Below are positions 26,393 to 48,591 of a stretch of 54,919 nt of DNA, one piece after another. Source of the stretch: a virus (taxonomy: Duplodnaviria > Caudoviricetes); IMG/VR virus record IMGVR_UViG_3300027736_000002, positions 1 through 54,919 of that record; one strand, given 5' to 3'. Below the pieces are notes generated by a model, which saw only the letters and a list, made by a program, of their open reading frames with translations, made no database searches and had not been told where the DNA came from. The position numbers and the translations under genes are program-made. Position 1 is the first letter of the stretch. Each line of letters begins with the position of its first letter.

Positions 26393-26460
26393 ACATTGAG
26401 ACGGCGAGACTGCCGTGAGTGCATTGTACAACACTTTTTTGAGTGCCATACAATTATTTT
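26393..26460 (-). promoter_or_regulatory. Repeated early promoter/leader element, copy 1
   Basis: Minus strand TTGTAT-N19-TACAAT, then ACGGC-N6-GCCGT hairpin, CTCAATGT and RBS. Confidence 0.8.
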
Positions 26461-28235
26461 GTGACCCCAAGGTCATTAAGCATGGCGTGAGCTTTTTTGA
26501 TGTACCAGTCATGGTCAATGTCATCAGGCAAAGAATCCGGCAGAATCATGAGCGGCTTGGCCCCATCGGTTATAGGGACCTTGTTGCCATTCTTTTTGTA
26601 GTGTATGGCCCCTTGCTCATCTTTGGCATAGTACCAACGGACTGCTTTACCTAGATACTCATTGTTCTTGATAGCCCCTCCGGTAACAGCTCTGACCGAG
26701 ATGAACTTACGAATCTCTGTACACTCATGGATTGTGGTCTCTATCGGAATGTCAAGCTGTAAGTAGTCCACAACGGCTTGCGTACAGATCTGAGTTGTCG
26801 GTGTTTTGGACAGGTTTTCATCGGCATAAACACCTTTGACTTTATACCCGCCATTGCGCTTAAGTGCAATGTAGTTGTTGATGTCACGCGAGTAGACCGC
26901 AGAATAAGAGGTCTCTTCAGTGCTAAAGCCAGTTGTTCTTTCCCACCTGGCAACAATGGTCTCCATGGCCGCTTGGTTGCGCTTTTGGCAATAGATGATG
27001 ATGCCATCAGTATTAGCACTCACAACACTAATGCTTTGTTCTTCAAGAGCCTCAATAAGCATTAGCAAGCTGAGTTGCCCAGTCACGGTTGTTTGAATAA
27101 GTAGGTTAGGTCCATAGAGGGCTGACCACCGTGACCCAAATTTGCCAAAGCTCCCGTTGATCGTAACTTTTAAAGCCTCGTTGATGACCTTATTGCCCTC
27201 TCTTTTTGCCTTGATTCTTTTCTCCACAAGGGATCTGTAGACGGTCAAGAAGTCAGGCCCGATATGGTCAGGATAAAGCTTCTGGTTCAGGATGACGCTA
27301 GGATAGTAGCTAGTCACGTCGCGGTCAACAATGATGTGGTTGGCGTCAGCTATGTAGTGAACTTTTTTCTCGCAAGAATGAATCCCGCCAATGCCTAGTT
27401 GGTATGTGCTAGACCCGACCTTGATCTTGAGTTTGCCGACCTCCAATGGTTCAGCAACGTCACCTTTTTCATTGAGTGTGAATGGCCGCGTCTTAAAAAT
27501 GTCTAAGGCATTGCCTAACCCTGGATGCTTAAACGCAACAAACAACGGAGGAACATAGTTGAATGAAAAGTCTTTAGGCAGACTAGGTCGAGAAACCTTC
27601 TCACCCTTGATTGCCTCGATCTGTTTTTTGATGACCGACTCAGCTATTTGAGCATCTGACTTTGACCGTAACTCCAAGCCATACTCTTTGCCCATCTGTT
27701 CACGTAGCTCAATCTGTTCACTGAGCCGGCCGTATAGGTCAATCGTTGTGTCTAAGTCGTTGATGCAGTAGCTACTCAGCAAGTCTCTTTCGTTTCGCTT
27801 GATCGTTGCGTTTGGTTCTATTGGCAAGTCTTGCATGCGTTTACTGTGCAAGCGACCACCATAGATCTTTAAACTTGCCTTCCCAGGTGCAACTTCAATC
27901 AAGTCAATGTGATCGATGTACTGGCATCTTGGCAATGTGTACTTTGATTCTGCATCCCAAGCCCTAAGATCATTGACAATGATGTCATCTGACAGAGCCT
28001 TCAGCTTTTGTGAATCAAAGCCGGCAATGGATCCTTTAAGCAAAAGCAGGTCATAGCGGTTGCCATTGAACGTGATGATTGTGTACTTGGACAAAAGGCT
28101 TTTAAGTGGCTCAACGTCAAAGTCTTCCCAGTCTGAGCGTTCAAAGGTTGCAATCTTGCCATTAGCAACGGACTTGATGGCAATCAAAAAGTAGTTGACA
28201 TAGCATTCAATGTCAAGTACAGCTTTATTCCGCAT
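26454..28235 (-). CDS. DNA polymerase, family B, with 3'-5' exonuclease domain
   Basis: ExoI LDIECY, ExoII FNGNRYD, ExoIII YCINDL; polymerase motifs DVTSYYPS, KVTINGSFGK, ANTDG. Confidence 0.88.
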   Translation of the reverse strand: MRNKAVLDIECYVNYFLIAIKSVANGKIATFERSDWEDFDVEPLKSLLSKYTIITFNGNRYDLLLLKGSIAGFDSQKLKALSDDIIVNDLRAWDAESKYTLPRCQYIDHIDLIEVAPGKASLKIYGGRLHSKRMQDLPIEPNATIKRNERDLLSSYCINDLDTTIDLYGRLSEQIELREQMGKEYGLELRSKSDAQIAESVIKKQIEAIKGEKVSRPSLPKDFSFNYVPPLFVAFKHPGLGNALDIFKTRPFTLNEKGDVAEPLEVGKLKIKVGSSTYQLGIGGIHSCEKKVHYIADANHIIVDRDVTSYYPSVILNQKLYPDHIGPDFLTVYRSLVEKRIKAKREGNKVINEALKVTINGSFGKFGSRWSALYGPNLLIQTTVTGQLSLLMLIEALEEQSISVVSANTDGIIIYCQKRNQAAMETIVARWERTTGFSTEETSYSAVYSRDINNYIALKRNGGYKVKGVYADENLSKTPTTQICTQAVVDYLQLDIPIETTIHECTEIRKFISVRAVTGGAIKNNEYLGKAVRWYYAKDEQGAIHYKKNGNKVPITDGAKPLMILPDSLPDDIDHDWYIKKAHAMLNDLGVTK

Positions 28236-28653
28236 ACTGACTCCATGCACGACCTGCTAAAACCCACAATTCTTTGCCACTGGATGGGTAGTCTTTATCG
28301 GCAACGATGCGCTTTATGCTTGTGCACAATGCTAGTTTGGTGCAGCTTATGCACGGCGCTGTTGTGCAGTACAAAGTGTCGGCTTCATCGACTTGACGCA
28401 GTCTAGCTATTGCGTTTTGTTCAGCATGGGCTGACATGCAAAGATCTAAGCCTGAACCACTAGGCAGTCCGGCTCCTGCACAAGGCACATCAATGCAATG
28501 TTGCGATCCTGGGAAAGACCCGTTGTAGCCGGAAGACAAGATGTATCCGTTGCCAGTTATCACGGCACCGACTTGCCTTCTGGAACAGGTTGCTCTTTTG
28601 GCAAATGCCCTAGCAACTTGCATGTAAGTCTGATCTAGCGTTGGTCTTGTCAT
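28225..28653 (-). CDS. dCMP deaminase
   Basis: ATCSRRQVGAVI, GYNG, HAEQNAI, PCISC zinc-deaminase motifs. Confidence 0.92.
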   Translation of the reverse strand: MTRPTLDQTYMQVARAFAKRATCSRRQVGAVITGNGYILSSGYNGSFPGSQHCIDVPCAGAGLPSGSGLDLCMSAHAEQNAIARLRQVDEADTLYCTTAPCISCTKLALCTSIKRIVADKDYPSSGKELWVLAGRAWSQYAE

Positions 28654-29768
28654 GATGGTTGCCGACCTTCTCTATGCTTGATGTGATTTATGTTGAATAT
28701 TTTTGAACGGTCTACGCTGTCATAGCCTCTAGGCTGGATGTATTGCTCGCAGTACCGAATCAAGTCACAACCGGGAGCAGCATCTTCAACGTCCATCGGT
28801 CTAGAGTTGAACAAGTCACAAAACATTCTTGTGCCGGTATCATAAAAGCTTTGTTTGCCCATTTTGCCTATAGGCTTAAAGACCAGCTCAAGGGCTGCTG
28901 TTGCATTTGCGCCATGATAGCAGTTTGAATTCTCATCAACGAGTTCTGGAAAGTACTCAGCAATGTCCATGACCCAGGCGGTTAGAACAAACTTGAACCT
29001 TCTCCATCCATGCAGTGTCTGCCAGTCTAAGCACCAGTCAACAGCGGATTGGATTTTTATCGGTTCTGATTGGTCAACCAACCAATTAAAAAAGTCTCGG
29101 GCAAGCTTAGGGGCTATGTCAACTAGGTACTCACGGCCTCCTTGACTATAGGCTGCCGAAGGCTTGTTAAACGAAGGTATTTGGTTGCCCATTGAACTAA
29201 ACATCGGGCCTTCAAAATCTTTGATCAACCGCCTAATTGAGTCCTCACCGTCTGCGTTCTTGCAGAGGTAAGGGACTGGCGAGTTGTACCAGCCATGCGG
29301 TGGCAGCTTAGCGTCACCGATCATGGCAAAGCTTGCACCTGAACCACAAATCCTGTGCACAAGAAAAATGTAGAACCATTCTGCATCGTTGAACTTGTCA
29401 GCGTAGCCTTCACATGCATAGCCGTGTTTGACATTCCATTTGTGTTTTGGATTGTCTTTGCCTAAAAACATTTCTTGTGGCACGTTTGAAAAGCCAGCAG
29501 CCCATCGGCTGACTGTGTCATAGATGTGAATGTTGTCTTGTAAAGGGCAGCCACTTTTAGTAGACTCAGGCAACATGCCAACGTTACGGTCTTGCAGCAA
29601 CTTAGCTCTATGGTGATACGCAACCGCTTCTAAGAAGTAGATCGACGGCTCTAGGTTGTAGTCTGAACAAAGATCCCATTCTTTGTTCAGTGCATCACGA
29701 TACGGATGCCTATCAATTTCATGCAACTCCAATGAGTGCAGTAGTTCAGGGCTATGGTTTAGCATCAT
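28650..29768 (-). CDS. HhH-glycosylase-fold DNA hypermodification protein (aGPT-PPase family: 5-hmdU DNA kinase / amino acid:DNA transferase relatives)
   Basis: FKFVLTAWVMDIAEYFP...YHGANATAAL...MDVEDAAPGCDLIRY resembles the F..D / G.GA / D.E...C...Y pattern of this family; gene context. Confidence 0.55.
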   Translation of the reverse strand: MMLNHSPELLHSLELHEIDRHPYRDALNKEWDLCSDYNLEPSIYFLEAVAYHHRAKLLQDRNVGMLPESTKSGCPLQDNIHIYDTVSRWAAGFSNVPQEMFLGKDNPKHKWNVKHGYACEGYADKFNDAEWFYIFLVHRICGSGASFAMIGDAKLPPHGWYNSPVPYLCKNADGEDSIRRLIKDFEGPMFSSMGNQIPSFNKPSAAYSQGGREYLVDIAPKLARDFFNWLVDQSEPIKIQSAVDWCLDWQTLHGWRRFKFVLTAWVMDIAEYFPELVDENSNCYHGANATAALELVFKPIGKMGKQSFYDTGTRMFCDLFNSRPMDVEDAAPGCDLIRYCEQYIQPRGYDSVDRSKIFNINHIKHREGRQPS

Positions 29769-30691
29769 GGCCCACGCTCCAGGTCAGACATGTCACCCCA
29801 TTCCCGCTGGCTTTTTAAGGGTATATTTTGGACTTGTTTATACTGAGCCACTACTTTGTCATCGGTGCCAACGTTTATGAAGATTGAGTCATCTATGCCA
29901 AAATTTTCAAAGTCTTCCCAGCACTTGGCATCATAGTTTGCCGTTGACGGGAAAGGTGGCCGTTTGTTTAGTGGTACGTCTTTCAAAAACGGTTGAGATG
30001 ATGACCATAGGATTGCATTGCCAATCTCACCATCATGCATATTACGAGCAACGATCACGCCACGGCAAGCTGCTTTAGGCCAAGCTATTTGCAATGCACG
30101 AATGGCTGTTCCAGTAGACACCGACATCCAAATCTCACTAGGATCTTTACCTAGTTGTTCAGTGACAAGTCCTGCAAGATTGATGATGCCGGCTGTGACC
30201 AATGGTGTTTTGCCAAGTCCAAAAGGCAAGTACTTTGCCCCATGCTTTTCAGCCCACTTCTTAGCATAGCTGTTTAAGGTTGGCATTGCTGCAATCTTGA
30301 TAAAACGCAAGTCAGACCCATAAGACAACAGTGCTTTTTGATGCATTGAAGGTTCGCCTGATGCTGGACAAAAGAACACGCAATGTTTGCCATAGAGTTT
30401 GGCAAGGGTTGCAATTGCATCCATAGCCATACCTACGCGAGGAGCACAATAGACTAAAACGTCTTCTTTGCACTCCGCTATCAACTGCTCAGCGCCGTAG
30501 CCTTTCAAGCTGCTAGCACTAGCATCGCCTCTGAACACCCACTTTTTACCATGGGGCCGTACTACTGGGGCTGACAGCTTTGACTTAAAGCCATTGCGCA
30601 TTGCAATGTAGTAGGACCTTGCATCATGTCTGCCCCAGCCTGCCGGAATGTCCATGTTTGACTTGCTAGTTGTGCACGTGAAGATACTCAT
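29765..30691 (-). CDS. PLP-dependent enzyme, fold type II, like phage hypermodification decarboxylases
   Basis: VFRGD...SLKGYGA (Schiff-base Lys), SVSTGTAIRALQ phosphate loop, PPFPSTANYDAKCW. Confidence 0.75.
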   Translation of the reverse strand: MSIFTCTTSKSNMDIPAGWGRHDARSYYIAMRNGFKSKLSAPVVRPHGKKWVFRGDASASSLKGYGAEQLIAECKEDVLVYCAPRVGMAMDAIATLAKLYGKHCVFFCPASGEPSMHQKALLSYGSDLRFIKIAAMPTLNSYAKKWAEKHGAKYLPFGLGKTPLVTAGIINLAGLVTEQLGKDPSEIWMSVSTGTAIRALQIAWPKAACRGVIVARNMHDGEIGNAILWSSSQPFLKDVPLNKRPPFPSTANYDAKCWEDFENFGIDDSIFINVGTDDKVVAQYKQVQNIPLKSQREWGDMSDLERGP

Positions 30692-31644
30692 AGTTGACCC
30701 CAATCAAAACGACGGTAAAAAGGAGGTGCAATGTGCACCGATGAGTTGAGCTCCATGAAAATGTTTGCATACTCTTCAGGGTCTACGGAGTACCAGCTGC
30801 TTGGCGGACTGATCAAGCATTGTTGGCTCATTTTGTCCATAAACAATTCAGTCCAATACCGCCTTTGATCTACTGTACCAGTGAATGGGGTTCCTTTATA
30901 AAAACCGGTTTGAGGGATCTTGCGCTTTTCCCATTCGATCGGTACAGGGGCGGCAATTTCAACTTGAATGTCATACTCACTGTTTAAAAAGTTGGCCACA
31001 TCGGCATAGTTGCTGCATAAGTCAATGACGGCTTGTTTAGGGGCGCTCTGTCGACCGATATGATGTCGGATGTCTATTGATCCACAGACTAAAGTTACGC
31101 GCCTTGGTTTGTGAACCAAGCGGCCTATTTGCTCAACAAAATAGCCTTTTTGTAATGCCCCATGCAACGTTAGTCCGTTTGTCCGGATTACACCTGAACC
31201 GCTAGCTGCAAAGGCCGTTGAGTGGCTGTCACCGATTGCGACTACGTCGTTTTTAAGATCTTGTTGGGTCAGTGTTGTCGAGGCTTGAAGGCGCGCATCT
31301 AGATTGGCCAAAAGGGCAGACGTCAGCCTAGTTGAGCATGTGGCCTGGCCTAAGCGTTTAGACAATTGGTGTGCATAGTTTGGCATAGGCCAATCCAAGC
31401 TGACTAGTTGTCCTTTGTAGTTTGCCAATTCTTCAAGCTTGTCAACTAAGCCTTCACTGACCCCTCCGAACAAATTGAGCACTCCGCCAAAATTGACGCC
31501 ATGCTCCACGTATAGGATTGGGCAAGTTAGCGGGTCAGTTGGCCCAGCAACAGGCACGCCAAGACATTCTGCCCAATGCATGGCCCAGCCACGCACATGG
31601 CTTTTTGGACGGACAGGTATGTTTTGAAATGGGTTGTAAATCAT
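30688..31644 (-). CDS. Two-domain protein: N-terminal T4 beta-glucosyltransferase-like acceptor domain plus C-terminal SGNH-like domain
   Basis: LNLFGG...LANYKGQLVSLDWPMP resembles recalled T4 BGT INFFGG...MAKYKSKIYYLFTDIRLP; VAIGDSHS, GSIDIRHH and SSVH fit SGNH blocks. Confidence 0.5.
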   Translation of the reverse strand: MIYNPFQNIPVRPKSHVRGWAMHWAECLGVPVAGPTDPLTCPILYVEHGVNFGGVLNLFGGVSEGLVDKLEELANYKGQLVSLDWPMPNYAHQLSKRLGQATCSTRLTSALLANLDARLQASTTLTQQDLKNDVVAIGDSHSTAFAASGSGVIRTNGLTLHGALQKGYFVEQIGRLVHKPRRVTLVCGSIDIRHHIGRQSAPKQAVIDLCSNYADVANFLNSEYDIQVEIAAPVPIEWEKRKIPQTGFYKGTPFTGTVDQRRYWTELFMDKMSQQCLISPPSSWYSVDPEEYANIFMELNSSVHIAPPFYRRFDWGQL

Positions 31645-32378
31645 TTTACAAGCCCGATGTGCCGTGGATAGATGTGCAAAGATCCTGCATTCCAGTACAT
31701 GTTGCCTTTGACTAAGTCAGGATAGGTTTGTTGCAGCCTGATCAAAGCAAAGTCGTGGACAGTATTTTGCCAAAAGTAGTCACCTTTATACCCATAGACT
31801 GCATCATTAGAACGCATGTTGACGATGTGGTTCAGCTGGCCGTCACGGATAAGTAGCTGAGTGCTGTACGTGCACATGAAGTCACGCATGCCGTCGATGA
31901 CCGAGTCTTCATGCATCGAGGGTCGAATGTAAATGATCACGGCTTGCCGGCTCTCTTTGTTTAAGACAAGGGAGTCAATTGCCTTATGGAATTGATAGCC
32001 GTTCTCAGCGCTAAAGACACACCATCCATAGTTTGAGTTGATCCGACCCTTCTTGCTTGCAACTTGTTGCCAGACCGCAGGCACAGGCGGAGCAATGTCA
32101 TTAGTGTTCAACGACTGGCTCATGTACCAACGCAGCTCACGAGCATTCCATTCGGCATTCACTTCACCAAAAATGGAAGGCTCATCGGCTATGAATGATG
32201 CATTGACAATCTCCAACATTCCAGATTCGTTTGGCTTCATAGCCTTGAACTGGTCTCGGATGCCTTGGACTGCTGTAAAGTAAGGTTTAACTGGTTTGAG
32301 CCTCGTTATCTGATCAAACAGTTTCTTTCCACGGTTGTAGAATTCTTTGTCTTTTCCTGTGCTGTTATCCTTACTCAT
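31641..32378 (-). CDS. dCMP hydroxymethylase (T4 gp42-like, thymidylate synthase fold)
   Basis: INSNYGW, YIRPSM, DFMCT (catalytic Cys), MRSNDAVYGYKGDYFWQ with Asp at the cytosine-specificity position, GSLHIYPRH. Confidence 0.88.
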   Translation of the reverse strand: MSKDNSTGKDKEFYNRGKKLFDQITRLKPVKPYFTAVQGIRDQFKAMKPNESGMLEIVNASFIADEPSIFGEVNAEWNARELRWYMSQSLNTNDIAPPVPAVWQQVASKKGRINSNYGWCVFSAENGYQFHKAIDSLVLNKESRQAVIIYIRPSMHEDSVIDGMRDFMCTYSTQLLIRDGQLNHIVNMRSNDAVYGYKGDYFWQNTVHDFALIRLQQTYPDLVKGNMYWNAGSLHIYPRHIGLVK

Positions 32379-33127
32379 TACTTGCTCCCTACAAAGCGGT
32401 CATCTTTATCTTTGTTGTGGGCTGTATGCTCCATCAGAATAAAGAGTTGGGTTCCAGCATGGGCAAGGTGGGGCAGCCCTGATTCTGGATCAGTGTCTTC
32501 ACCTTGCCAGAAAGCAAAAAGATGCCGTATGATGGAGCCATAGGTACGTGACCAAGCAACAGTCTCGCCTTGACGGTACGAGTTGGCAAAGTACTTCTTG
32601 GCACCAAAGCCAAACACATTGGCAACTTGCATCATTGGGTCTATTGGTAGCAGATCTACTCGCACCTTTGTTGCGTCAAACTTAGGTGCAAAGCCAGGTT
32701 GGATTGTGCCATCTGAGCTAGGTGCAATTGGGGATAGTGCAGGAACTCGGTCAATGATTTGTTCAAGTTCTGCTTCAGGGCCAATCCAACCTTTAGGTTT
32801 GACTAGGTCACGCTTGAAGCCACCACGCTTATCACCATTTTGGCCAACTTCTTTGGCCATGTTTGCCTTCATGACCTTCTCAAAGCCTTCAAGCAAAGGC
32901 AGCCCTTGTCTGTCAAGAGTGCCAACAGCAAACACGATCAGATCGAGAAGGGCGTCGTACTCATCGACCAATGTAGTTGCGGCGTTGTACTCATCAAGTT
33001 CCTCTTGCAAAGCTTTGACTCGAAAGGCTTTTTCATGAGGATCAAGATGCCAAGGCACGCCAATGCTTGATGTCAAACCAAATTTTTTGTGCATGGCCTT
33101 GACAAGGCCCATAATCCTGCTTTCCAT
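32378..33127 (-). CDS. Fused dNTP pyrophosphohydrolase: MazG/PRA-PH-like domain plus DUF5664-type (dATP/dGTP diphosphohydrolase) domain
   Basis: N-half LQEELDEY...DALLDL...ANMAK...DLVKPKGW; C-half KFDATKVRVDLLP...GAKKY...RHL...DPESGLPHLAHA. Confidence 0.8.
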   Translation of the reverse strand: MESRIMGLVKAMHKKFGLTSSIGVPWHLDPHEKAFRVKALQEELDEYNAATTLVDEYDALLDLIVFAVGTLDRQGLPLLEGFEKVMKANMAKEVGQNGDKRGGFKRDLVKPKGWIGPEAELEQIIDRVPALSPIAPSSDGTIQPGFAPKFDATKVRVDLLPIDPMMQVANVFGFGAKKYFANSYRQGETVAWSRTYGSIIRHLFAFWQGEDTDPESGLPHLAHAGTQLFILMEHTAHNKDKDDRFVGSK

Positions 33128-42657: not shown

Positions 42658-44231
42658 ACGCACCACTCAGCCCGGTTGCAATGCTTGACATGATCAAGCA
42701 TGAGCGAGACCGTCGCCGAGCTGAGGGTTGCTTGTATGACTTTGTCAAGCAAAGCTGGCATGTCGTAGAGCCTGGCATACCATTTATCCAGAGCTGGCAC
42801 ATCCAAGAGATCTGCGAACACCTTGAGGCCATCTCATGCGGTGACATTCGGCGGCTGCTCATCAACATACCGCCAAGGCACTCCAAGTCAACCATTGTGT
42901 CGGTCATGTGGCCGATGTGGGAATGGCTGACAACGCCTGAGCAGAAGTTCTTGTGTGCCAGCTACGCAGGCAACCTGAGCATTCGTGACAACTTGAAGGC
43001 ACGGCGCTTAGTGCAGTCGCCTTGGTATCAAGAACGTTGGGGCGGTTTGTTTGAACTGTCGGGCGACCAGAATGCCAAGCAACGGTTCGAGAACAGCAAG
43101 ACCGGCTACCGCATAGCCACGTCACCTGGCGGCACGGCTACAGGCGAAGGCGGCTCTCGATTGGTGCTTGACGATCCACACGGTGCACAAGAAGCCCAGT
43201 CAGACGCCATGCGTGAGAGTACGTTGGACTGGTTTGACATGGTCTGGTCAACGCGGCTGAACAACCCCAAGACCGACGCAATGGTAGTTGTGATGCAGCG
43301 GCTGCATGAGCGCGACATCAGCGGACACATACTCGATGACATCAAAGGCTGGGAGCACATTTGTATCCCTGCCGAGTGGGACGGCAAGGTGCGCAAGACA
43401 GTGCTCGGTCCATACGACCCACGCACCAAGAAAGGTGAACTCATCTGCCCTGAGCGCTTCGGGCCGATAGAGATCACGGCCTTAAAGCAGCTACTCGGTT
43501 CGTACGGCACAAGCGGTCAACTGCAGCAAGATCCTGTGCCGAGTACCGGCGGCTTGCTCAAGACTGCGTTCTTCCAGCAATGGCCACACAATGAACGGCT
43601 GCCGCAGTACGAGTACATACTGCAGAGCTACGACTGTGCATTCACCGAGAAGACTACAGGCGACCCTACGGCCTGCACGGTATGGGGAATGTTCACGCAC
43701 AAAGGCGAGCGGAACTGCATGCTGCTTGATGCTTGGGACGAACACCTCAGCTATCCTGACTTAAGAACCAAAGCCGTTAAGGATTGGACGACCGAGTATG
43801 GTGGCGACAACAATAATGGGGCAGGCATGCCTACTCGGGCTCGACGGCCTGATCGCATCTTGGTAGAAGCCAAGGCCAGTGGTCAATCGCTGCTTCAAGA
43901 CTTGCGTTTGGCCAGAGTGCCTGCAGTAGGGTATAATCCGGGAAACGCCGACAAAGTAAGCCGTGCACATCAAGCAGCACCCACCTTGGAGCTTGGACTA
44001 TTGTGGATACCCGAGTCAAAGCGCAACCCTGGACAGCCTGTCAGCTGGGCAGCGGCGTTCATCAAACAGCTTACCAAGTTCCCACTGGCCGAGCATGACG
44101 ACTATGTGGATACGTTTACGCAAGCCATCATCTACCTCAAGGATGATGGTTGGTTTGAGCTGCCGCAAGCCAAGGACGTTGACGAACCACGGCCTAAGAG
44201 CAAAGACAAGGTGAACCCATATGCCGCTTGA
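42654..44231 (+). CDS. terL: Terminase large subunit
   Basis: INIPPRHSKS Walker A, LVLDDPH Walker B, MQRLH, QSYDCA, VEAKASG, HDDYVDTFTQ nuclease motifs. Confidence 0.95.
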   Translation: MNAPLSPVAMLDMIKHERDRRRAEGCLYDFVKQSWHVVEPGIPFIQSWHIQEICEHLEAISCGDIRRLLINIPPRHSKSTIVSVMWPMWEWLTTPEQKFLCASYAGNLSIRDNLKARRLVQSPWYQERWGGLFELSGDQNAKQRFENSKTGYRIATSPGGTATGEGGSRLVLDDPHGAQEAQSDAMRESTLDWFDMVWSTRLNNPKTDAMVVVMQRLHERDISGHILDDIKGWEHICIPAEWDGKVRKTVLGPYDPRTKKGELICPERFGPIEITALKQLLGSYGTSGQLQQDPVPSTGGLLKTAFFQQWPHNERLPQYEYILQSYDCAFTEKTTGDPTACTVWGMFTHKGERNCMLLDAWDEHLSYPDLRTKAVKDWTTEYGGDNNNGAGMPTRARRPDRILVEAKASGQSLLQDLRLARVPAVGYNPGNADKVSRAHQAAPTLELGLLWIPESKRNPGQPVSWAAAFIKQLTKFPLAEHDDYVDTFTQAIIYLKDDGWFELPQAKDVDEPRPKSKDKVNPYAA

Positions 44232-47200
44232 CCCTCTTGACGAGTTCTTGCCTCCACGCTATCGGTCTGCTGGTCGTAGGCCTGAGGCCAACAACGACAG
44301 AACCGCTTCTGCTAATGCGCCATTGTCAGCGTTGAGGGGTTGGGCAGCAGGCACAGCAGGGTTAGCAGGAGATATAGAAGGCTTAGCCCGTGCAGGTATC
44401 TCCCAACTGCCGCCACAACTGCTGACAGCCTTTCCTGCACTTCGTGCATTTGGCATAGGCAGTCGCGCAGATCCCACGCCGCAAATGCCAACAACCGAGT
44501 TCTACAACGAATACCTACCCGGTGCTCAGTTGAATCAAACTCCAACAGGCAAAGCATTCACTACTTCAGGCAACTTGTTTGGCGGCACAGGAACTACGAC
44601 ACTTGCTAAGTATGGTATTAAGAGTGCAAAGGCAACGGGCCAAGCACTAGGGCCAACCGCTGTGCGGATAGGCGAGGACTATTTGCAGCGGCAAGGTTTG
44701 ATGCCCGGCGTTATTAAGCCCAAAGGTGGTAACCAATTGGCCGGTAGTTTTGAGAATTCATTGAAAGGGTTAAAAACCGACGTGCCTGCGTTTGACTTTT
44801 CTGAAGGCAGAAATATGAAACAAACGGACGCCAACTTTATCGAACAAAACTTTCCGGGAATCACTCAGGAATATTCGGACGCTTTTCGTGCTTCTGGGAT
44901 GCACTCAATGGACTACGCAAAAAAGCAAATTCCATGGTTGAAACAAAATCATCCGGAAATCATAGATTCGTTGTTGACAGGCAAAACAAAAGATCAGGCA
45001 CTCAATACCTGGATTGACAAACAACTGACCAATTATATTAAGAATGACATGGCCACCCCCGGAGACCCAATCCGGGCCTTAGCTGAGCGGGGTATAACCT
45101 ATGCTGAAATGGCGCCGCTTAATACTTATTTGAGTGACGTACTAGGTCGTCGTCGAGAATCTGTTGGCTTTCCTGCTAAGGGTTTTGGGCAATCAGAAGC
45201 AGCTCAACGTTGGGAAGCAGCTGCTGACGAGGCTATTCATAATGCCCCTGCTAGGGAACGGCTCAATACTACTATTTCAGCATCAGAAAAAAACCTATTG
45301 GAAAACCCATGGCTAGCTAAAGTTCCACCAGAGACAATGACGTATGGTGCTTACGCTAACTCGGGACAACAGCTAGGTTTTGACCACATCGTTGACGAAC
45401 TTCGTAATGCTACAGACTTAGCCAGTAGTCTGCCACCTAATTTACGTTTAAAGTCTAGTAGTTTACCACAATTAAGTGTACCTCAAGCTGTTGAGCGTGT
45501 CAGCCAGATCAATGCTTGGCGTGCTGCAGAAGCTATTAAAGCTGAAAAAGCAGGCATGATGGGCAACCTTAATGCTAATTCACGTCTTGAAGATCCAACA
45601 ACACAACTATCGTTTGTTGACAAGCCTGGAATGAAATGGGTTGACATCCCCGAGACAACCGACAAGATTGGGTTGAACCTTTGCACTACCATTGGTAAGC
45701 AAGGTGGTTGGTGTACTCAAGGCGAAGGGTTAGCTAAGAGTTATGGCTCTGGGCCAAATCGGCTTACTACTTTGATAGATGCCGATGGCCGCCCTCATGC
45801 ACAAGCAAAGATTACATCTATCCCCTATTCCGGGGACATCATGGATGACGTTGACGACATAATGCAAACAATGTCTGCAGCAGAACAGCGCAAATTCAAT
45901 AGGTATATAGGCTCTAACGAATTTGCACCGCATGGTGACGTTGACACGGAAGAAGTATTGGCATGGTTGCAAAGCAATATGCCTAAATCTTACAAGCGCT
46001 ACCTTGCATCAATCAGCGGCCCATCCAATATCACAGAGATTAAACCTGTTAGCAATGACTTCTCCAGTGCCCGTGCACTGGAGTACAAGAGTCGCGACCC
46101 ACAGTATCAGAACAAGATCACAGACTCAACGTTAAAGTTCCTTAACTCTAGTGAATGGGGTACGGTAACCGATTTGGACCACTTCAACATTGTTGATTTA
46201 AAGGATACCCATAGCGTTCAGAGGGCTTTAAGAGAAGTTTTAGATAGGGACTTGCCAAAAGATCGGATTGACAAGTTTAACTACGCGGTCAATTTTAATC
46301 CTGAAGCAAATCGGTTTATGTCAACCAGACAATTTTCTGATTTTCTTGAGCCGCCAGAAGGCTTTGCCAAGGGCGGCGCAGTCCACTTTGACGAAGGCGG
46401 TGCAGCCTTTGGCGTATTCCCGCAGATGAAGCCACGCCGGGCACTGCAAGACCGTGAGGCTGCGGCCAATGCACCACTATCTGCACTCCGAGGCTACGCA
46501 GCGGGTACTGCCGGATTGCCAGGAGACATTGAGGGGTTGGCCCGTGCAGGCATCTCTCAACTGCCGCCGCAAGTGTTGGCAGCTTTCCCTGCACTACGTG
46601 CATTTGGCATAGGCAGCCGTGCAGACCCTACTCCACAGCTACCAACCACTGAGTTCTATAACGAGTATCTGCCGGGTGCTCAGTTGAATCAAACTCCAAC
46701 AGGTAAAGCATTTACCGCTGCAGGCAACTTGCTTGGCGGTGCAGGCTCCACGACACTTGCTCGGTATGGCATCAAGAGTGCAAAGGCAACGGCCAAAGCA
46801 ATTGCTGAAGCTGCCCCCGGACCTGCTTCTGGCAGCCGTGCAGCCCAACTTGGTGTCATCAAAATGCCTGGCGGCAACTGGTTGTCCGGCTCGGTGGAAG
46901 AATCTGTGAGTCCAATGAAACGGCGTGGAACTCCTTCAATTGCATTTAGCCAAGAAGAAGCTGATGACTTTATTGCAAGAGGTTTTGTTAGAGATAAGTC
47001 AGGAGGAGATGGTTATTATTTACCGCCTGACCCGGTCAACAACTTCATTGACAAGAAGATTGCACCGTACATCCGCGATGAAATGGCCACACCTAATGAT
47101 CCGTTGCGAGCAATGGCTGAGAAGTATGCTGTGGACAAACCAGTTAGGCTGGCTGAGGTGCAAGGTCGGATTGATGCCTTTGCTGCCAAGATGGAACAAA

Positions 47201-48591
47201 CGGCTAGAAAGCGTGGCGTGCCTGTTGAGATGCTGACCTCAATGCGCCAGCAGATGATTGGCCTAGAGAAAGAGAGAGACCTGTTGCAAGTTAGGGAGGC
47301 ACTTCATGCAGAAATTTTACCAACCACATACGACATGGGACGTAAACGCAAAGAGAGAGGTTTCCCAGAAGAGGGTATGGGTGTATCTCCACAAGCCAAG
47401 GCATGGGAAAGCAAGTCTGACTCATTTATCAATAGCCTTAAAGCATCTGACCTGACCACCGGGGACTACCAAGGGGTTCAAATAAAAAATCCTTGGCTTT
47501 TTAAAGTTCCTTCGGAAACACCAGTTTATAACTTATATAACGGTTTAAATAGTGACCTTGGCTTTGACCACCTCGTTGATGAACTTCGCAATGCCACTAA
47601 TCCTGCATCTGGTTTGCCTAAAAACTTGCTCATTGACCCTGCCGACTTAGGCAAGCTCACAATGACTCAAGCGGTTGACCGTGTGGCTGACATCAATGCT
47701 TGGCGTGCCACACAGAAGATAGAAGCCAACCAATTGATTGCCAACAATGCAGCTACATTCCTGCACAAAGAGTATCCAACTATTCCCGGATTAGATACCC
47801 CTAATAAGCTTGGTTTAAAGTGGGTGCAAATTAGACATGACCCAACTCTTGATATTTTACCTAAAAGTCTTAAAGGTAAACAAGAAGGTGACGAATACGT
47901 TATTCGAAATTCTAAAGGTGAATTGCTGGTTTCGCACGACAATTATACTTACGCTTTTGATGATCTTAGGGAAAATTATCCTCAGTATTTTAAGAATGAC
48001 CCGCTTAAAAAGGCCTTAAAGTATGAAGGCGACGTCATGGGCCACTCTGTCGGCGGGTATGGCATTCAAGGTAACTATGGCGCAGGAGGCATAACCGCCA
48101 TTCGAGAAGGTGAAGCTAGCATTTATTCACTACGTGATGCAAAAGGTCAACCACAGGTGACAATTGAAACTAGACCTGGGTACACCACCTTTGACGCATG
48201 GAAACGTGATGATAAGTCTGGACCTGAAAGAATCATTCAAATCAAAGGCTTCAGGAACAAAAAACCTGCTGATGAGTACCTACCATTCGTGCAGGACTTT
48301 GTCAAGAGTGGCAATTGGTCTGAAGTTAATGACTTGGCGAATGCAGGGCTACATGATGCCCGCGCTGCTGGTAAGGCTATAGAAGGCCGACCCGCGTTCA
48401 TGACTGATGAGGAGCTCGAGGCATTTAAAGCTGAGTTTGCTCCTAAACCCGAAGGCATGGCCCACGGCGGCTTAGTCTCAACCAATTTTGACCCAATTAA
48501 AATTCAACAAATCATTGCTGGCTTAGATGATGAGTATGATCCTGAACGCATCCAGCAAATAGTTGCGCAACGTGAAAGTGCATATGCCTAA
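44221..48591 (+). CDS. Large internally duplicated protein with PcfJ-like C-terminal domain
   Basis: 1456 aa in two homologous halves; LKYEGDVMGHSVGGY...IYSLRD...VTIE...QIKG PcfJ-like motif. Confidence 0.7.
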   Translation: MPLDPLDEFLPPRYRSAGRRPEANNDRTASANAPLSALRGWAAGTAGLAGDIEGLARAGISQLPPQLLTAFPALRAFGIGSRADPTPQMPTTEFYNEYLPGAQLNQTPTGKAFTTSGNLFGGTGTTTLAKYGIKSAKATGQALGPTAVRIGEDYLQRQGLMPGVIKPKGGNQLAGSFENSLKGLKTDVPAFDFSEGRNMKQTDANFIEQNFPGITQEYSDAFRASGMHSMDYAKKQIPWLKQNHPEIIDSLLTGKTKDQALNTWIDKQLTNYIKNDMATPGDPIRALAERGITYAEMAPLNTYLSDVLGRRRESVGFPAKGFGQSEAAQRWEAAADEAIHNAPARERLNTTISASEKNLLENPWLAKVPPETMTYGAYANSGQQLGFDHIVDELRNATDLASSLPPNLRLKSSSLPQLSVPQAVERVSQINAWRAAEAIKAEKAGMMGNLNANSRLEDPTTQLSFVDKPGMKWVDIPETTDKIGLNLCTTIGKQGGWCTQGEGLAKSYGSGPNRLTTLIDADGRPHAQAKITSIPYSGDIMDDVDDIMQTMSAAEQRKFNRYIGSNEFAPHGDVDTEEVLAWLQSNMPKSYKRYLASISGPSNITEIKPVSNDFSSARALEYKSRDPQYQNKITDSTLKFLNSSEWGTVTDLDHFNIVDLKDTHSVQRALREVLDRDLPKDRIDKFNYAVNFNPEANRFMSTRQFSDFLEPPEGFAKGGAVHFDEGGAAFGVFPQMKPRRALQDREAAANAPLSALRGYAAGTAGLPGDIEGLARAGISQLPPQVLAAFPALRAFGIGSRADPTPQLPTTEFYNEYLPGAQLNQTPTGKAFTAAGNLLGGAGSTTLARYGIKSAKATAKAIAEAAPGPASGSRAAQLGVIKMPGGNWLSGSVEESVSPMKRRGTPSIAFSQEEADDFIARGFVRDKSGGDGYYLPPDPVNNFIDKKIAPYIRDEMATPNDPLRAMAEKYAVDKPVRLAEVQGRIDAFAAKMEQTARKRGVPVEMLTSMRQQMIGLEKERDLLQVREALHAEILPTTYDMGRKRKERGFPEEGMGVSPQAKAWESKSDSFINSLKASDLTTGDYQGVQIKNPWLFKVPSETPVYNLYNGLNSDLGFDHLVDELRNATNPASGLPKNLLIDPADLGKLTMTQAVDRVADINAWRATQKIEANQLIANNAATFLHKEYPTIPGLDTPNKLGLKWVQIRHDPTLDILPKSLKGKQEGDEYVIRNSKGELLVSHDNYTYAFDDLRENYPQYFKNDPLKKALKYEGDVMGHSVGGYGIQGNYGAGGITAIREGEASIYSLRDAKGQPQVTIETRPGYTTFDAWKRDDKSGPERIIQIKGFRNKKPADEYLPFVQDFVKSGNWSEVNDLANAGLHDARAAGKAIEGRPAFMTDEELEAFKAEFAPKPEGMAHGGLVSTNFDPIKIQQIIAGLDDEYDPERIQQIVAQRESAYA
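44311..46793 (+). repeat. Direct repeat pair of about 330 bp (44311-44640 and 46465-46793)
   Basis: Both encode ANAPLSALRG...PTTEFYNEYLPGAQLNQTPTGKAFT...YGIKSAKAT, mostly with synonymous differences. Confidence 0.9.

Follow-up and report, generated by a model that had tools for sequence, protein, structure and literature searches.

The 54,919-bp window analyzed here (IMG/VR virus record IMGVR_UViG_3300027736_000002) is an entire virus record that has direct terminal repeats and a completeness rating of 100%, and it carries six minus-strand open reading frames (ORFs) between 28225 and 33127 that run into the gene for a 598-aa DNA polymerase (Table 1). Three of the six, which we call X318, PLP312, and Y372, form a conserved module found beside cytosine-type hydroxymethylases in many environmental phages. 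Our reading, to which we give a probability of about 0.5, is that the module carries out a post-replicative, amino-acid-derived, non-sugar hypermodification of 5-hydroxymethylcytosine (5hmC) in which X318 replaces kinase activation. The chassis of this system is known and its transferase slot is new, since the slot holds two families without curated annotation and a third borrowed from thymidine hypermodification; the module may bring both a new activation chemistry and a new base. A first-pass annotation of this DNA had described six translationally coupled genes running into a polymerase, and all of these ORFs are there on the minus strand, with neighbors overlapping by 1-4 nt except at two junctions, whose listed start codons are TTG or GTG. 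It had also suggested a synteny search for a four-gene core, and the same gene order does recur in related IMG/VR contigs; the window phage's close relatives there retain the whole block.

Searching IMG/VR with a profile of the X318 family yielded at least 570 confirmed stretches. The loci compared here number 77, of which 69 are new and 4 were found earlier, all from the best 80 of those at least 570, and 4 more were reached via Y372. Many of the 77 are redundant or cut by contig ends, and collapsing X318 at 70% identity while keeping only loci with 3 kb on both sides gave a non-redundant set of 21. Y372 is present in 70 of the 77 loci, PLP312 in 66, a homolog of the deoxycytidylate (dCMP) hydroxymethylase dCH245 in 57, MazG in 49, and the deaminase in 37; the corresponding counts in the non-redundant set are 21/21, 19/21, 17/21, 19/21, and 13/21. 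An amino-acid:DNA transferase (AADT) or HMUDK_hel protein of the M6 type occurs in none of the 77. When 13 long or atypical proteins were checked, 8 had an X318 domain at the N terminus (E 1e-42 to 1e-66) and Y372 at the C terminus (E 1e-18 to 1e-127); a search for loci related to the fused protein P0326 found none. X318-PLP312-Y372 is a conserved module, and the gene arrangement is far beyond chance; the gene order recurs in relatives and the middle trio co-occurs across diverse phages.

The module occurs in two phage lineages, the window's own 55-kb lineage and T4-like contigs with PolB, UvsX, and a gp41-type helicase (Pfam). In the cultured-phage collection, tblastn gave no match to Y372 at E<=1e-3 and matched PLP312 in only three records, from two Erythrobacter phages and a Microcystis phage; the whole region searched by blastn produced a single 163-bp match, and these searches turned up no cultured phage that has the full trio. 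One variant of the locus has a protein of about 327 aa (c9), with no Pfam or PHROG match, between Y372 and X318, so that the order is Y372-c9-X318-PLP312; this arrangement was seen in 15 loci, including L136, L141-L143, L168, L171, L174, L175, L177-L180, L182, and L184.

The hydroxymethylase points to cytosine as the base concerned. dCH245 matches the T4 dCMP hydroxymethylase structure 1b49 (phmmer E 1.1e-58, residues 54-244) and PF00303 (E 3.6e-13), and its DFMCT and KGDYFW motifs align with T4 C148 and D179, the Asp of KGD being T4 Asp179. According to the sections of PMC13326640 available to us, three positions are diagnostic in this family: N177D marks cytosine, an acidic residue at L143 gives water access, and D169N marks synthases of 5-hydroxy-dCMP, which some gp42-like proteins make instead (PMC13326640, 2026). 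In dCH245, DFMC combines the catalytic Cys with an Asp at the E. coli L143 position, KGD puts Asp at the N177 position, and RSND keeps Asp at D169. We considered dCH245 as a 5-hydroxy-dCMP synthase and ruled this out because the Asp at the D169 position is retained. The earlier view of a cytosine-type hydroxymethylase as opposed to a plain thymidylate synthase (TS) thus holds, given the gp42 match and all three published signature residues, and from this strong homology we predict that dCH245 is a T4-type enzyme that makes 5-hydroxymethyl-dCMP (5hm-dCMP) from dCMP and methylene-tetrahydrofolate. The same type of enzyme accompanies the module elsewhere: all 48 distinct neighboring TS homologs whose motif is complete carry Asp at the D169 position as well as at N177, as does the more distant TS homolog of locus L010.

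The other nucleotide enzymes of the block were also named correctly at first pass. MazG249 contains both of the pyrophosphatase domains claimed for it, PRA-PH/MazG PF01503 (E 3e-6, residues 10-89) and dGTP_diPhyd_N PF18909 (E 7e-28, residues 149-244), and matches phrog_801 at E 1.1e-32; it is probably a dCTPase that supplies dCMP and removes dCTP. The deaminase dCD142 matches the cytidine deaminase domain PF00383 (E 2.9e-20) and phrog_174 (E 3.1e-36) and has both zinc motifs, HAE (HAEQNA) and PCxxC (PCISC). As in T4, it would supply dUMP for dTMP synthesis; the single PF00303 match in the window genome is the hydroxymethylase, and the phage has no thymidylate synthase of its own.

X318 has no Pfam match even at E<=10 but belongs to phrog_13881 (E 1.9e-61). 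Its AlphaFold2 (AF2) model has two domains and a predicted local distance difference test (pLDDT) score of 94.3. Residues 130-318 adopt an SGNH fold: Foldseek against the PDB gave 2hsj as the best match (E 1.3e-4) among 6 at E<=1e-3, and the VIA fold search gave 7tog (Z 12.5, root-mean-square deviation (rmsd) 3.2, 171 aligned) with 61 chains at Z>=8. G138, D139, and S140 of the GDSH motif, together with H304, are invariant in 50 sequences. The N-terminal alpha/beta domain (residues 1-125) is strongly conserved, with the motif HGVNFGG.LNLFGG and an invariant Asp84, and the ESM Atlas gave no usable match for it. We propose that X318 is a group-transfer or activating enzyme that acts on 5hmC in DNA. 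A comparison of its family with the M6 gp54 kinase was not significant (hhalign E 0.17).

X318 had been described as a hybrid of T4 beta-glucosyltransferase (BGT) and SGNH, and the fold searches bear out the SGNH half while the BGT half comes down to one short motif. hhalign of X318 with BGT gave E 0.029 and a probability of 1.7% over 51 columns only. In that alignment the LNLFGG / SLD..MP motif falls on BGT residues 51-104, and the invariant Asp84 pairs with BGT Asp100, which is described as the catalytic base of that enzyme. With X318 as the query BGT is missing from the Foldseek top 50 of both the PDB and BFVD, and the X318 family profile searched against PDB sequences found no BGT, its best match being a ribosomal protein at E 0.06. 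X318 does not have the C-terminal UDP-glucose-binding Rossmann domain of GT-B enzymes and shows the SGNH fold there instead. We therefore regard a BGT origin of the N-terminal domain as unsupported.

Y372 matches no PHROG and no Pfam model, even at E<=10, and hence none of the aGPT-Pplase, ADDT, and HMUDK_hel models. Its AF2 model (pLDDT 93.7) is all-helical. The exhaustive VIA search placed 8z2m_A at the top of 48,161 chains (Z 9.6, rmsd 4.1, 208 aligned); this is PaMx11 gp46, an amino-acid:DNA transferase that acts as a 5-phosphomethyl-dU glycinyltransferase. The next matches were AGOG, DUF2419, and other helix-hairpin-helix (HhH) glycosylases at Z <=8.6. Model and fold search thus agree with the HhH fold proposed earlier for this protein, and the HhH series comes only from the VIA search, Foldseek of the model against the PDB giving no match at E<=0.001. 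The link to the aGPT-PPase family that had been drawn alongside fares differently at the two levels, since the fold likeness supports it and the Pfam family models do not. In hhalign comparisons the Y372 family gave no significant score with a profile of 25 IMG/VR AADT sequences (E 0.033, 19 columns), a profile of 17 IMG/VR HMUDK_hel sequences (E 0.24, 137 columns), M6 gp51 (E 0.24), M6 gp55 (E 0.55), or a 795-aa Aeromonas phage protein (E 0.32). M6 gp51 itself scores 1.4e-46 to Pfam ADDT PF18724, which Y372 fails to match. The ESM Atlas offers a lead only: 26 of 30 matches to Y372 lie in viral clusters where PF18723 HMUDK_hel, the helical domain of 5-hydroxymethyldeoxyuridine DNA kinase formerly called aGPT-Pplase1, is carried by 13-14% of the members. 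Because the fold is near that of PaMx11 gp46 and the profile comparisons are not significant, we treat Y372, on the strength of its model, as a probable new clade in the distant neighborhood of the aGPT-Pplase superfamily (AADT / HMUDK_hel) and as a member of neither Pfam family.

A profile search of 1.84 billion representatives gave 161 proteins in the Y372 family. Invariant polar residues are many and include H138, R139, E328, D329, C334, and D335. By eye, and not by superposition, E328/D329/C334/D335 lie at a C-terminal position similar to that of AADT Glu243/Thr244/Cys247, which form a metal and base clamp in the active site as described in the part of PMC11472151 available to us; M6 gp51 reads EVETVLC. 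We propose that Y372 is either a base-flipping partner or a transferase on activated 5hmC. Prediction of an X318 + Y372 complex from the family alignments scored 0.00, which is no answer and evidence neither way. In several close relatives (L018, L020, L022, L023, L027, L028, and L030) the neighboring genes are 70-96% identical to those of the window and the gene at the Y372 position only 31-34%; in L020, for example, X318 is 89%, PLP312 93%, the deaminase 96%, and Y372 32% identical. The pattern suggests that two Y372 types are exchanged as cassettes, which could change the attached group.

PLP312 has characterized relatives. It matches phrog_7093 at E 1.4e-43 over profile positions 15-278 of 279, and M6 gp52, which matches the same PHROG at E 2.2e-159, is a core member. 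Purified M6 gp52 and ViI gp226 are pyridoxal-phosphate (PLP)-dependent decarboxylases of amino acids already on thymine in DNA (PMC8989533, consulted in part). The PHROG shared with the M6 gp52 decarboxylase supports the tie to thymidine hypermodification seen at first pass. At the level of Pfam, the PALP score of PLP312 is 24.8 bits, under the 35-bit cut-off, and many of its homologs carry PF00291 in the precomputed table. The PLP312 family aligned with M6 gp52 at hhalign E 0.0052 over 165 columns, with STGT/SSGT and PFP..YD.K.W motifs in common. Lys67 and S196-T197-G198-T199 are invariant in the family alignment, and K67 corresponds to M6 K36 by motif only (SSLKGYG vs SFSKIRG). The family profile found nothing useful among PDB sequences (best E 0.68). 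The true start is likely the in-frame ATG at 30691, which restores the usual 4-nt overlap and gives 308 aa, the length of most homologs. From its family membership we propose that PLP312 is a decarboxylase of a DNA-bound amino-acid adduct.

A PLP312-like domain also occurs in larger proteins. The large protein gp1 of Erythrobacter phage vB_EliS_R6L (L002, record 65666..2423), annotated as a "DNA modification methylase," contains one with 32% identity over residues 56-283, and similar proteins with the domain are found in Erythrobacter phage ZS04 and Microcystis phage Mae-JY30. These methylase-annotated proteins are possibly another DNA-tailoring fusion.

With a complete genome, it is meaningful when a gene is missing from the window; of the 58 window ORFs of >=70 aa, 49 were scanned against PHROG and Pfam. 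These scans found no glycosyltransferase, in line with the earlier remark that no complete glucosyltransferase was visible. No P-loop kinase was found in the window genome, where a Walker-A motif appears only in the primase-helicase and, by chance, in a tail-fiber protein, and no transferase of the M6 type was found. The thymidine pathway needs a 5-hydroxymethyldeoxyuridine (5-hmdU) DNA kinase to make a leaving group (PMC8989533, in the part available). As that kinase is absent, the module would have to activate or derivatize the hydroxymethyl group differently and would be no simple copy of the thymidine pathway. The first-pass annotation had proposed just such amine or amino-acid chemistry of the thymidine type on 5hmC; the PLP family, the HhH fold, and the C-specific neighbors speak for it, and the missing kinase speaks against a simple copy. 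Elsewhere, a phrog_761-like kinase is present in 4 of the 77 loci, and a small ORF with an N-terminal Walker-A motif lies <=5 kb from X318 in 12. The phrog_761 protein, a "thymidylate kinase"-like P-loop protein of 170-347 aa, stands beside the module only in the distant loci L010-L013 and directly abuts X318 in L012 and L013; this protein is a candidate for the hm-dCMP kinase missing from the window phage.

The pathway that we propose would begin with hydrolysis of dCTP to dCMP by MazG249. dCH245 would then convert dCMP to 5-hydroxymethyl-dCMP, a step predicted from strong homology and the signature residues. Host kinases, invoked because the phage encodes no detectable dNMP kinase, would raise 5hm-dCMP to the triphosphate, and Pol598 would incorporate 5hm-dCTP, thereby installing 5hmC in DNA. 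X318 and Y372 would act on 5hmC in DNA as one unit, a joint action suggested by their folds, the fused genes, synteny, and the lack of a kinase. The glycosylase-like fold of Y372 would flip out and hold the 5hmC base while the Ser140-His304 site of X318 activates the 5-CH2OH group, most likely as an ester and not as a kinase-made phosphate. An amino acid would then be attached via its side chain, replacing the ester under the direction of Y372. A labile intermediate, if there is one, would account for the fusion of X318 to Y372. PLP312 would decarboxylate the tethered amino acid to an amine, as M6 gp52 and ViI gp226 do on thymidine adducts, and the deaminase would supply host thymidylate synthesis with dUMP. 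On cytosine, the product would correspond to bases such as 5-(2-aminoethoxy)methyluracil. By analogy with the thymidine adducts of 345 u and 301 u (PMC8989533), an O-seryl adduct would have a mass of about 344 u and its decarboxylated amine about 300 u, compared with 257 u for 5hm-dC.

Several points weigh against this proposal. No phage dNMP kinase is detectable in the window genome, which leaves the phosphorylation of 5hm-dCMP without a phage enzyme. Although the catalytic Ser and His of X318 are conserved, block III reads G188-S189-I190-D191 and block V reads S301-S302-V303-H304 (blocks assigned from motif position, not superposition), so that the canonical Asn and Asp are replaced and classical acyl transfer is not assured. 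Moreover, we know of no SGNH enzyme that acts on DNA. A Z score of 9.6 is middling for a helical protein such as Y372, and its AADT and HMUDK_hel profile comparisons fell short of significance. Direct BLASTP of PLP312 with M6 gp52 gave E 0.003 at 23% identity, and fold-type-II PLP enzymes catalyze many reactions. Seven loci have no PLP312, uvsX coming next after X318 and Y372, and the PLP step is therefore not universal. Genes of the sugar-nucleotide type flank the module in 7-16 of the 77 loci, a minority of the T4-like loci, and for that reason a sugar-type donor must be kept in view. Finally, the 77 loci are the best-scoring and not a random sample of the at least 570 stretches.

Of the rival explanations, the one that we take most seriously, though we consider it unlikely, is that X318-Y372 is a 5hmC O-acyltransferase whose ester or derivative is the final product, like 5-carbamoyloxymethylcytosine, with Y372 serving only for DNA binding and base flipping, a role suggested for the helical domain of 5-hmdU DNA kinase, and PLP312 preparing the donor or trimming the acyl group. 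The SGNH fold with its conserved Ser140 and His304 suits such an enzyme, and fusions with X318 N-terminal and Y372 C-terminal copy the catalytic-plus-helical layout of HMUDK, the annotation that part of the ESM Atlas clusters nearest Y372 carry. The 795-aa Aeromonas protein has a weak C-terminal HMUDK_hel match in a genome where no PLP312 homolog was found, seven loci do without PLP312, and 5hmC carbamoylation provides a precedent (PMC8670742, seen in part). Against this, PLP312 is with X318 in 19 of the 21 non-redundant loci and its characterized relatives act on DNA-bound amino acids and not on free donors; the many invariant polar residues of Y372 are also more in keeping with an active site than with a passive DNA clamp. 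Esters of 5-hydroxymethylpyrimidines are, in addition, chemically labile. We think it distinctly unlikely that the module instead glycosylates 5hmC or adds a nucleotide-activated alcohol, X318 then being a novel DNA glycosyl or phospho-alcohol transferase with an N-terminal domain derived from the acceptor half of BGT. The module does sit at the beta-gt position in T4-like contigs, sugar-nucleotide-type genes adjoin it in some loci, and the short BGT-like motif pairs Asp84 with BGT Asp100. However, the 1.7% hhalign probability and the lack of a Pfam, PDB-profile, or Foldseek top-50 match to BGT count against that origin, an SGNH domain stands in place of the nucleotide-sugar-binding half of GT-B, sugar genes are missing from the window's complete genome and from most loci, and a PLP enzyme would have no obvious role.

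It is very unlikely that the trio acts before replication on free 5hm-dCMP or 5hm-dCTP and not on DNA: the genes do lie in a nucleotide-metabolism block beside the polymerase, and the characterized 5hmC carbamoyltransferase also accepts 5hm-dCTP (PMC8670742, in the part seen), but the HhH structural relatives of Y372 bind duplex DNA and flip bases, and enzymes of the M6 gp52 family act on DNA. The first-pass annotation had raised the alternative that the deaminase turns 5hm-dCMP into 5hm-dUMP, so that the module would hypermodify thymine positions. Coupled translation of the deaminase gene with the module and the resemblance of the downstream enzymes to those of thymidine hypermodification would fit. 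We nevertheless find this route highly improbable, because the deaminase is absent from 8 of the 21 non-redundant loci with flanks and the TS/PRA-PH/deaminase set also accompanies plain 5hmC pathways (PMC8670742, in part). M6 likewise lists a putative dCMP deaminase, gp65, the dUMP hydroxymethylase of T-modifying phages is of the Asn type (M6 gp58), and the T-type 5-hmdU DNA kinase, AADT, and HMUDK_hel are found in 0 of 77 loci. Equally hard to credit is a trio unrelated to base modification, such as a nucleotide salvage, anti-defense, or DNA-repair set traveling with replication genes. X318 and Y372 belong to no curated family and the functions of all three proteins are predicted only, yet the specific link to C-type hydroxymethylases (48/48), the beta-gt position, and the place of PLP312 in a DNA-hypermodification PHROG all argue against it.

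The proposed amino-acid-type modification of 5hmC shares features with several known systems. The T4 pathway (gp56 dCTPase, gp42, gp1 kinase, and alpha/beta-glucosyltransferases) has the same first committed enzyme with the same signature residues, and in both T4 and the window a dNTP pyrophosphatase and a dCMP deaminase accompany the hydroxymethylase. Unlike T4, the window has no detected glucosyltransferase or gp1-type kinase, and its transferase slot is filled by SGNH-fold, PLP, and HhH proteins. With the thymidine pathway of M6, ViI, and PaMx11 (5-hmdU DNA kinase, AADT, formerly aGPT-Pplase2, and PLP decarboxylase) the window shares the PLP PHROG of M6 gp52, a TS homolog that makes a hydroxymethylpyrimidine followed by tailoring on DNA, and in Y372 a protein whose nearest structure is PaMx11 gp46. 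It differs in that cytosine and an Asp-type hydroxymethylase take the place of uracil and the Asn-type enzyme M6 gp58, there is no P-loop 5-hmdU DNA kinase, Y372 matches no AADT/HMUDK_hel sequence model, and X318 has no counterpart.

A non-sugar O-modification of 5hmC on the same gene chassis is known from uncultured phages, where a 5hmC carbamoyltransferase co-occurs with a TS homolog, a PRA-PH pyrophosphatase, and a dCMP deaminase (MetaGPA, eLife 2021, PMC8670742, consulted in part). That enzyme is TobZ-like and uses carbamoyl phosphate and ATP, whereas the window has three proteins of unrelated folds. As described in the available portion of NAR 2026 (PMC13326640), 5-hydroxycytosine arabinosylation in RB69 and DLP3 likewise starts from a gp42-like TS homolog and proceeds by post-replicative decoration of the C5 oxygen; however, the synthases of those phages make 5-hydroxy-dCMP and carry Asn at the D169 position, while dCH245 and 48 neighbors keep Asp, and the arabinosyltransferases are not present here. 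Among SGNH/GDSL esterases and O-acyltransferases (PatB, OafA, and acetyl-xylan esterases), residues 130-318 of X318 share the fold at Z 10-12.5, the GDS(H) Ser, and the C-terminal His, and X318 departs from them in its replaced block-III Asn and block-V Asp, its extra conserved N-terminal domain, and its DNA-glycosylase-like partner or fusion. We found no description of an X318-PLP312-Y372 module in the literature searched, which took in parts of the TET-pathway papers and whose scope ended short of supplementary tables and the 2013 aGPT-Pplase survey.

To our knowledge, the known phage decorations of 5hmC are sugars and, once, carbamoyl, and amino-acid-derived hypermodifications occur only on thymine. 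A cytosine version, if true, would be a new DNA base and a new enzyme chemistry on duplex DNA. Enzymes that selectively derivatize 5hmC would be useful reagents for epigenomic mapping, and modified cytosines shape the resistance of phages to restriction and CRISPR nucleases, a matter of interest for phage ecology and engineering.

The proposal would also provide a testable explanation for those cultured T4-like Aeromonas phages that have gene 42 and no glucosyltransferase. In T4 the order is 42, beta-gt, segA, uvsX, and in 23 of the 77 loci the module lies between a gene-42 homolog and uvsX, that is, at the beta-gt position in T4-like contigs. Phages 44RR, 31, and 25 of Aeromonas are listed with genes 42 and 56 and no glucosyltransferase in the sections of Petrov et al. 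2010 (PMC2993671) that we consulted, which raise the question, with RB69 and JS98 as the named cases, of a different modification of Hm-dCMP in phages of this kind. In 44RR, gp42 carries the hydroxymethylase signature. An X318-type gene also occurs in Tenacibaculum phage PTm1. T4-like Aeromonas phages, 44RR, 31, and 25 among them, encode the 795-aa protein mentioned above, whose first 334 residues are an X318 domain and whose C-terminal part weakly resembles HMUDK_hel (E 0.0036; E 8e-4). A PLP312-family search of the 44RR genome returned no homolog, an empty answer that shows nothing by itself, and the PLP312 family compared with the 795-aa protein gave hhalign E 0.83. A broader claim, which we put forward tentatively and regard as somewhat doubtful, is that X318-Y372(-PLP312) is a widespread system making the first amino-acid/amine-type hypermodified cytosine, with SGNH acyl-transfer activation and a labile acyloxymethyl intermediate passed to a fused or partnered glycosylase-like transferase, and that this explains the fate of hmC in Aeromonas (44RR, 31, 25) and environmental T4-like phages that lack glucosyltransferases. 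Directly upstream of the gene for the 795-aa X318 fusion, Aeromonas phage 44RR2.8t has ORF234c (L001 3399-4922), which is sodium:solute symporter-like.

The sugar-type genes around the module have preferred positions. Directly after Y372 come a UDP-glucose dehydrogenase in 12 of 77 loci and an NAD epimerase/dehydratase in 10, and before the dCH gene are a small nucleotidyltransferase (phrog_7878; 16/77), a cupin (12/77), and a DAHP-synthase-family protein (7/77). Loci flanked in this way include L138, L149, L161, L164, L167, L169, and L170.

Table 1. Genes of the six-gene block and the adjoining polymerase gene in the 54,919-bp window
Gene	Product	Position	Strand	Basis
MazG249	249 aa, two-domain dNTP pyrophosphohydrolase	32378..33127	-	PF01503 + PF18909, phrog_801
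dCH245	245 aa, predicted T4 gp42-type dCMP hydroxymethylase (5hm-dCMP synthase)	31641..32378	-	phmmer to 1b49, signature residues
X318	318 aa, N-terminal alpha/beta domain + C-terminal SGNH fold	30688..31644	-	AF2 model, fold search, phrog_13881
PLP312	312 aa, putative fold-type-II PLP enzyme, M6 gp52 family	29765..30703	-	phrog_7093
Y372	372 aa, helix-hairpin-helix, DNA-glycosylase-like	28650..29768	-	AF2 model, fold search
dCD142	142 aa, dCMP deaminase	28225..28653	-	PF00383, phrog_174
Pol598	598-aa DNA polymerase, directly downstream	26454..28250	-	phrog_1252 E 1.4e-198

Judged by the PHROG and Pfam scans, the genome is that of a tailed phage: genes for structure, lysis, and packaging lie on the plus strand, and the replication block is on the minus strand. 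A 1456-aa ORF (44221-48591, plus strand) that separates the large terminase from a portal-like protein has no PHROG or Pfam match. Upstream of the six-gene block are genes for a single-stranded DNA-binding protein, a DUF932 protein, a PD-(D/E)XK exonuclease, and an SNF2 helicase, as assigned by Pfam and PHROG.

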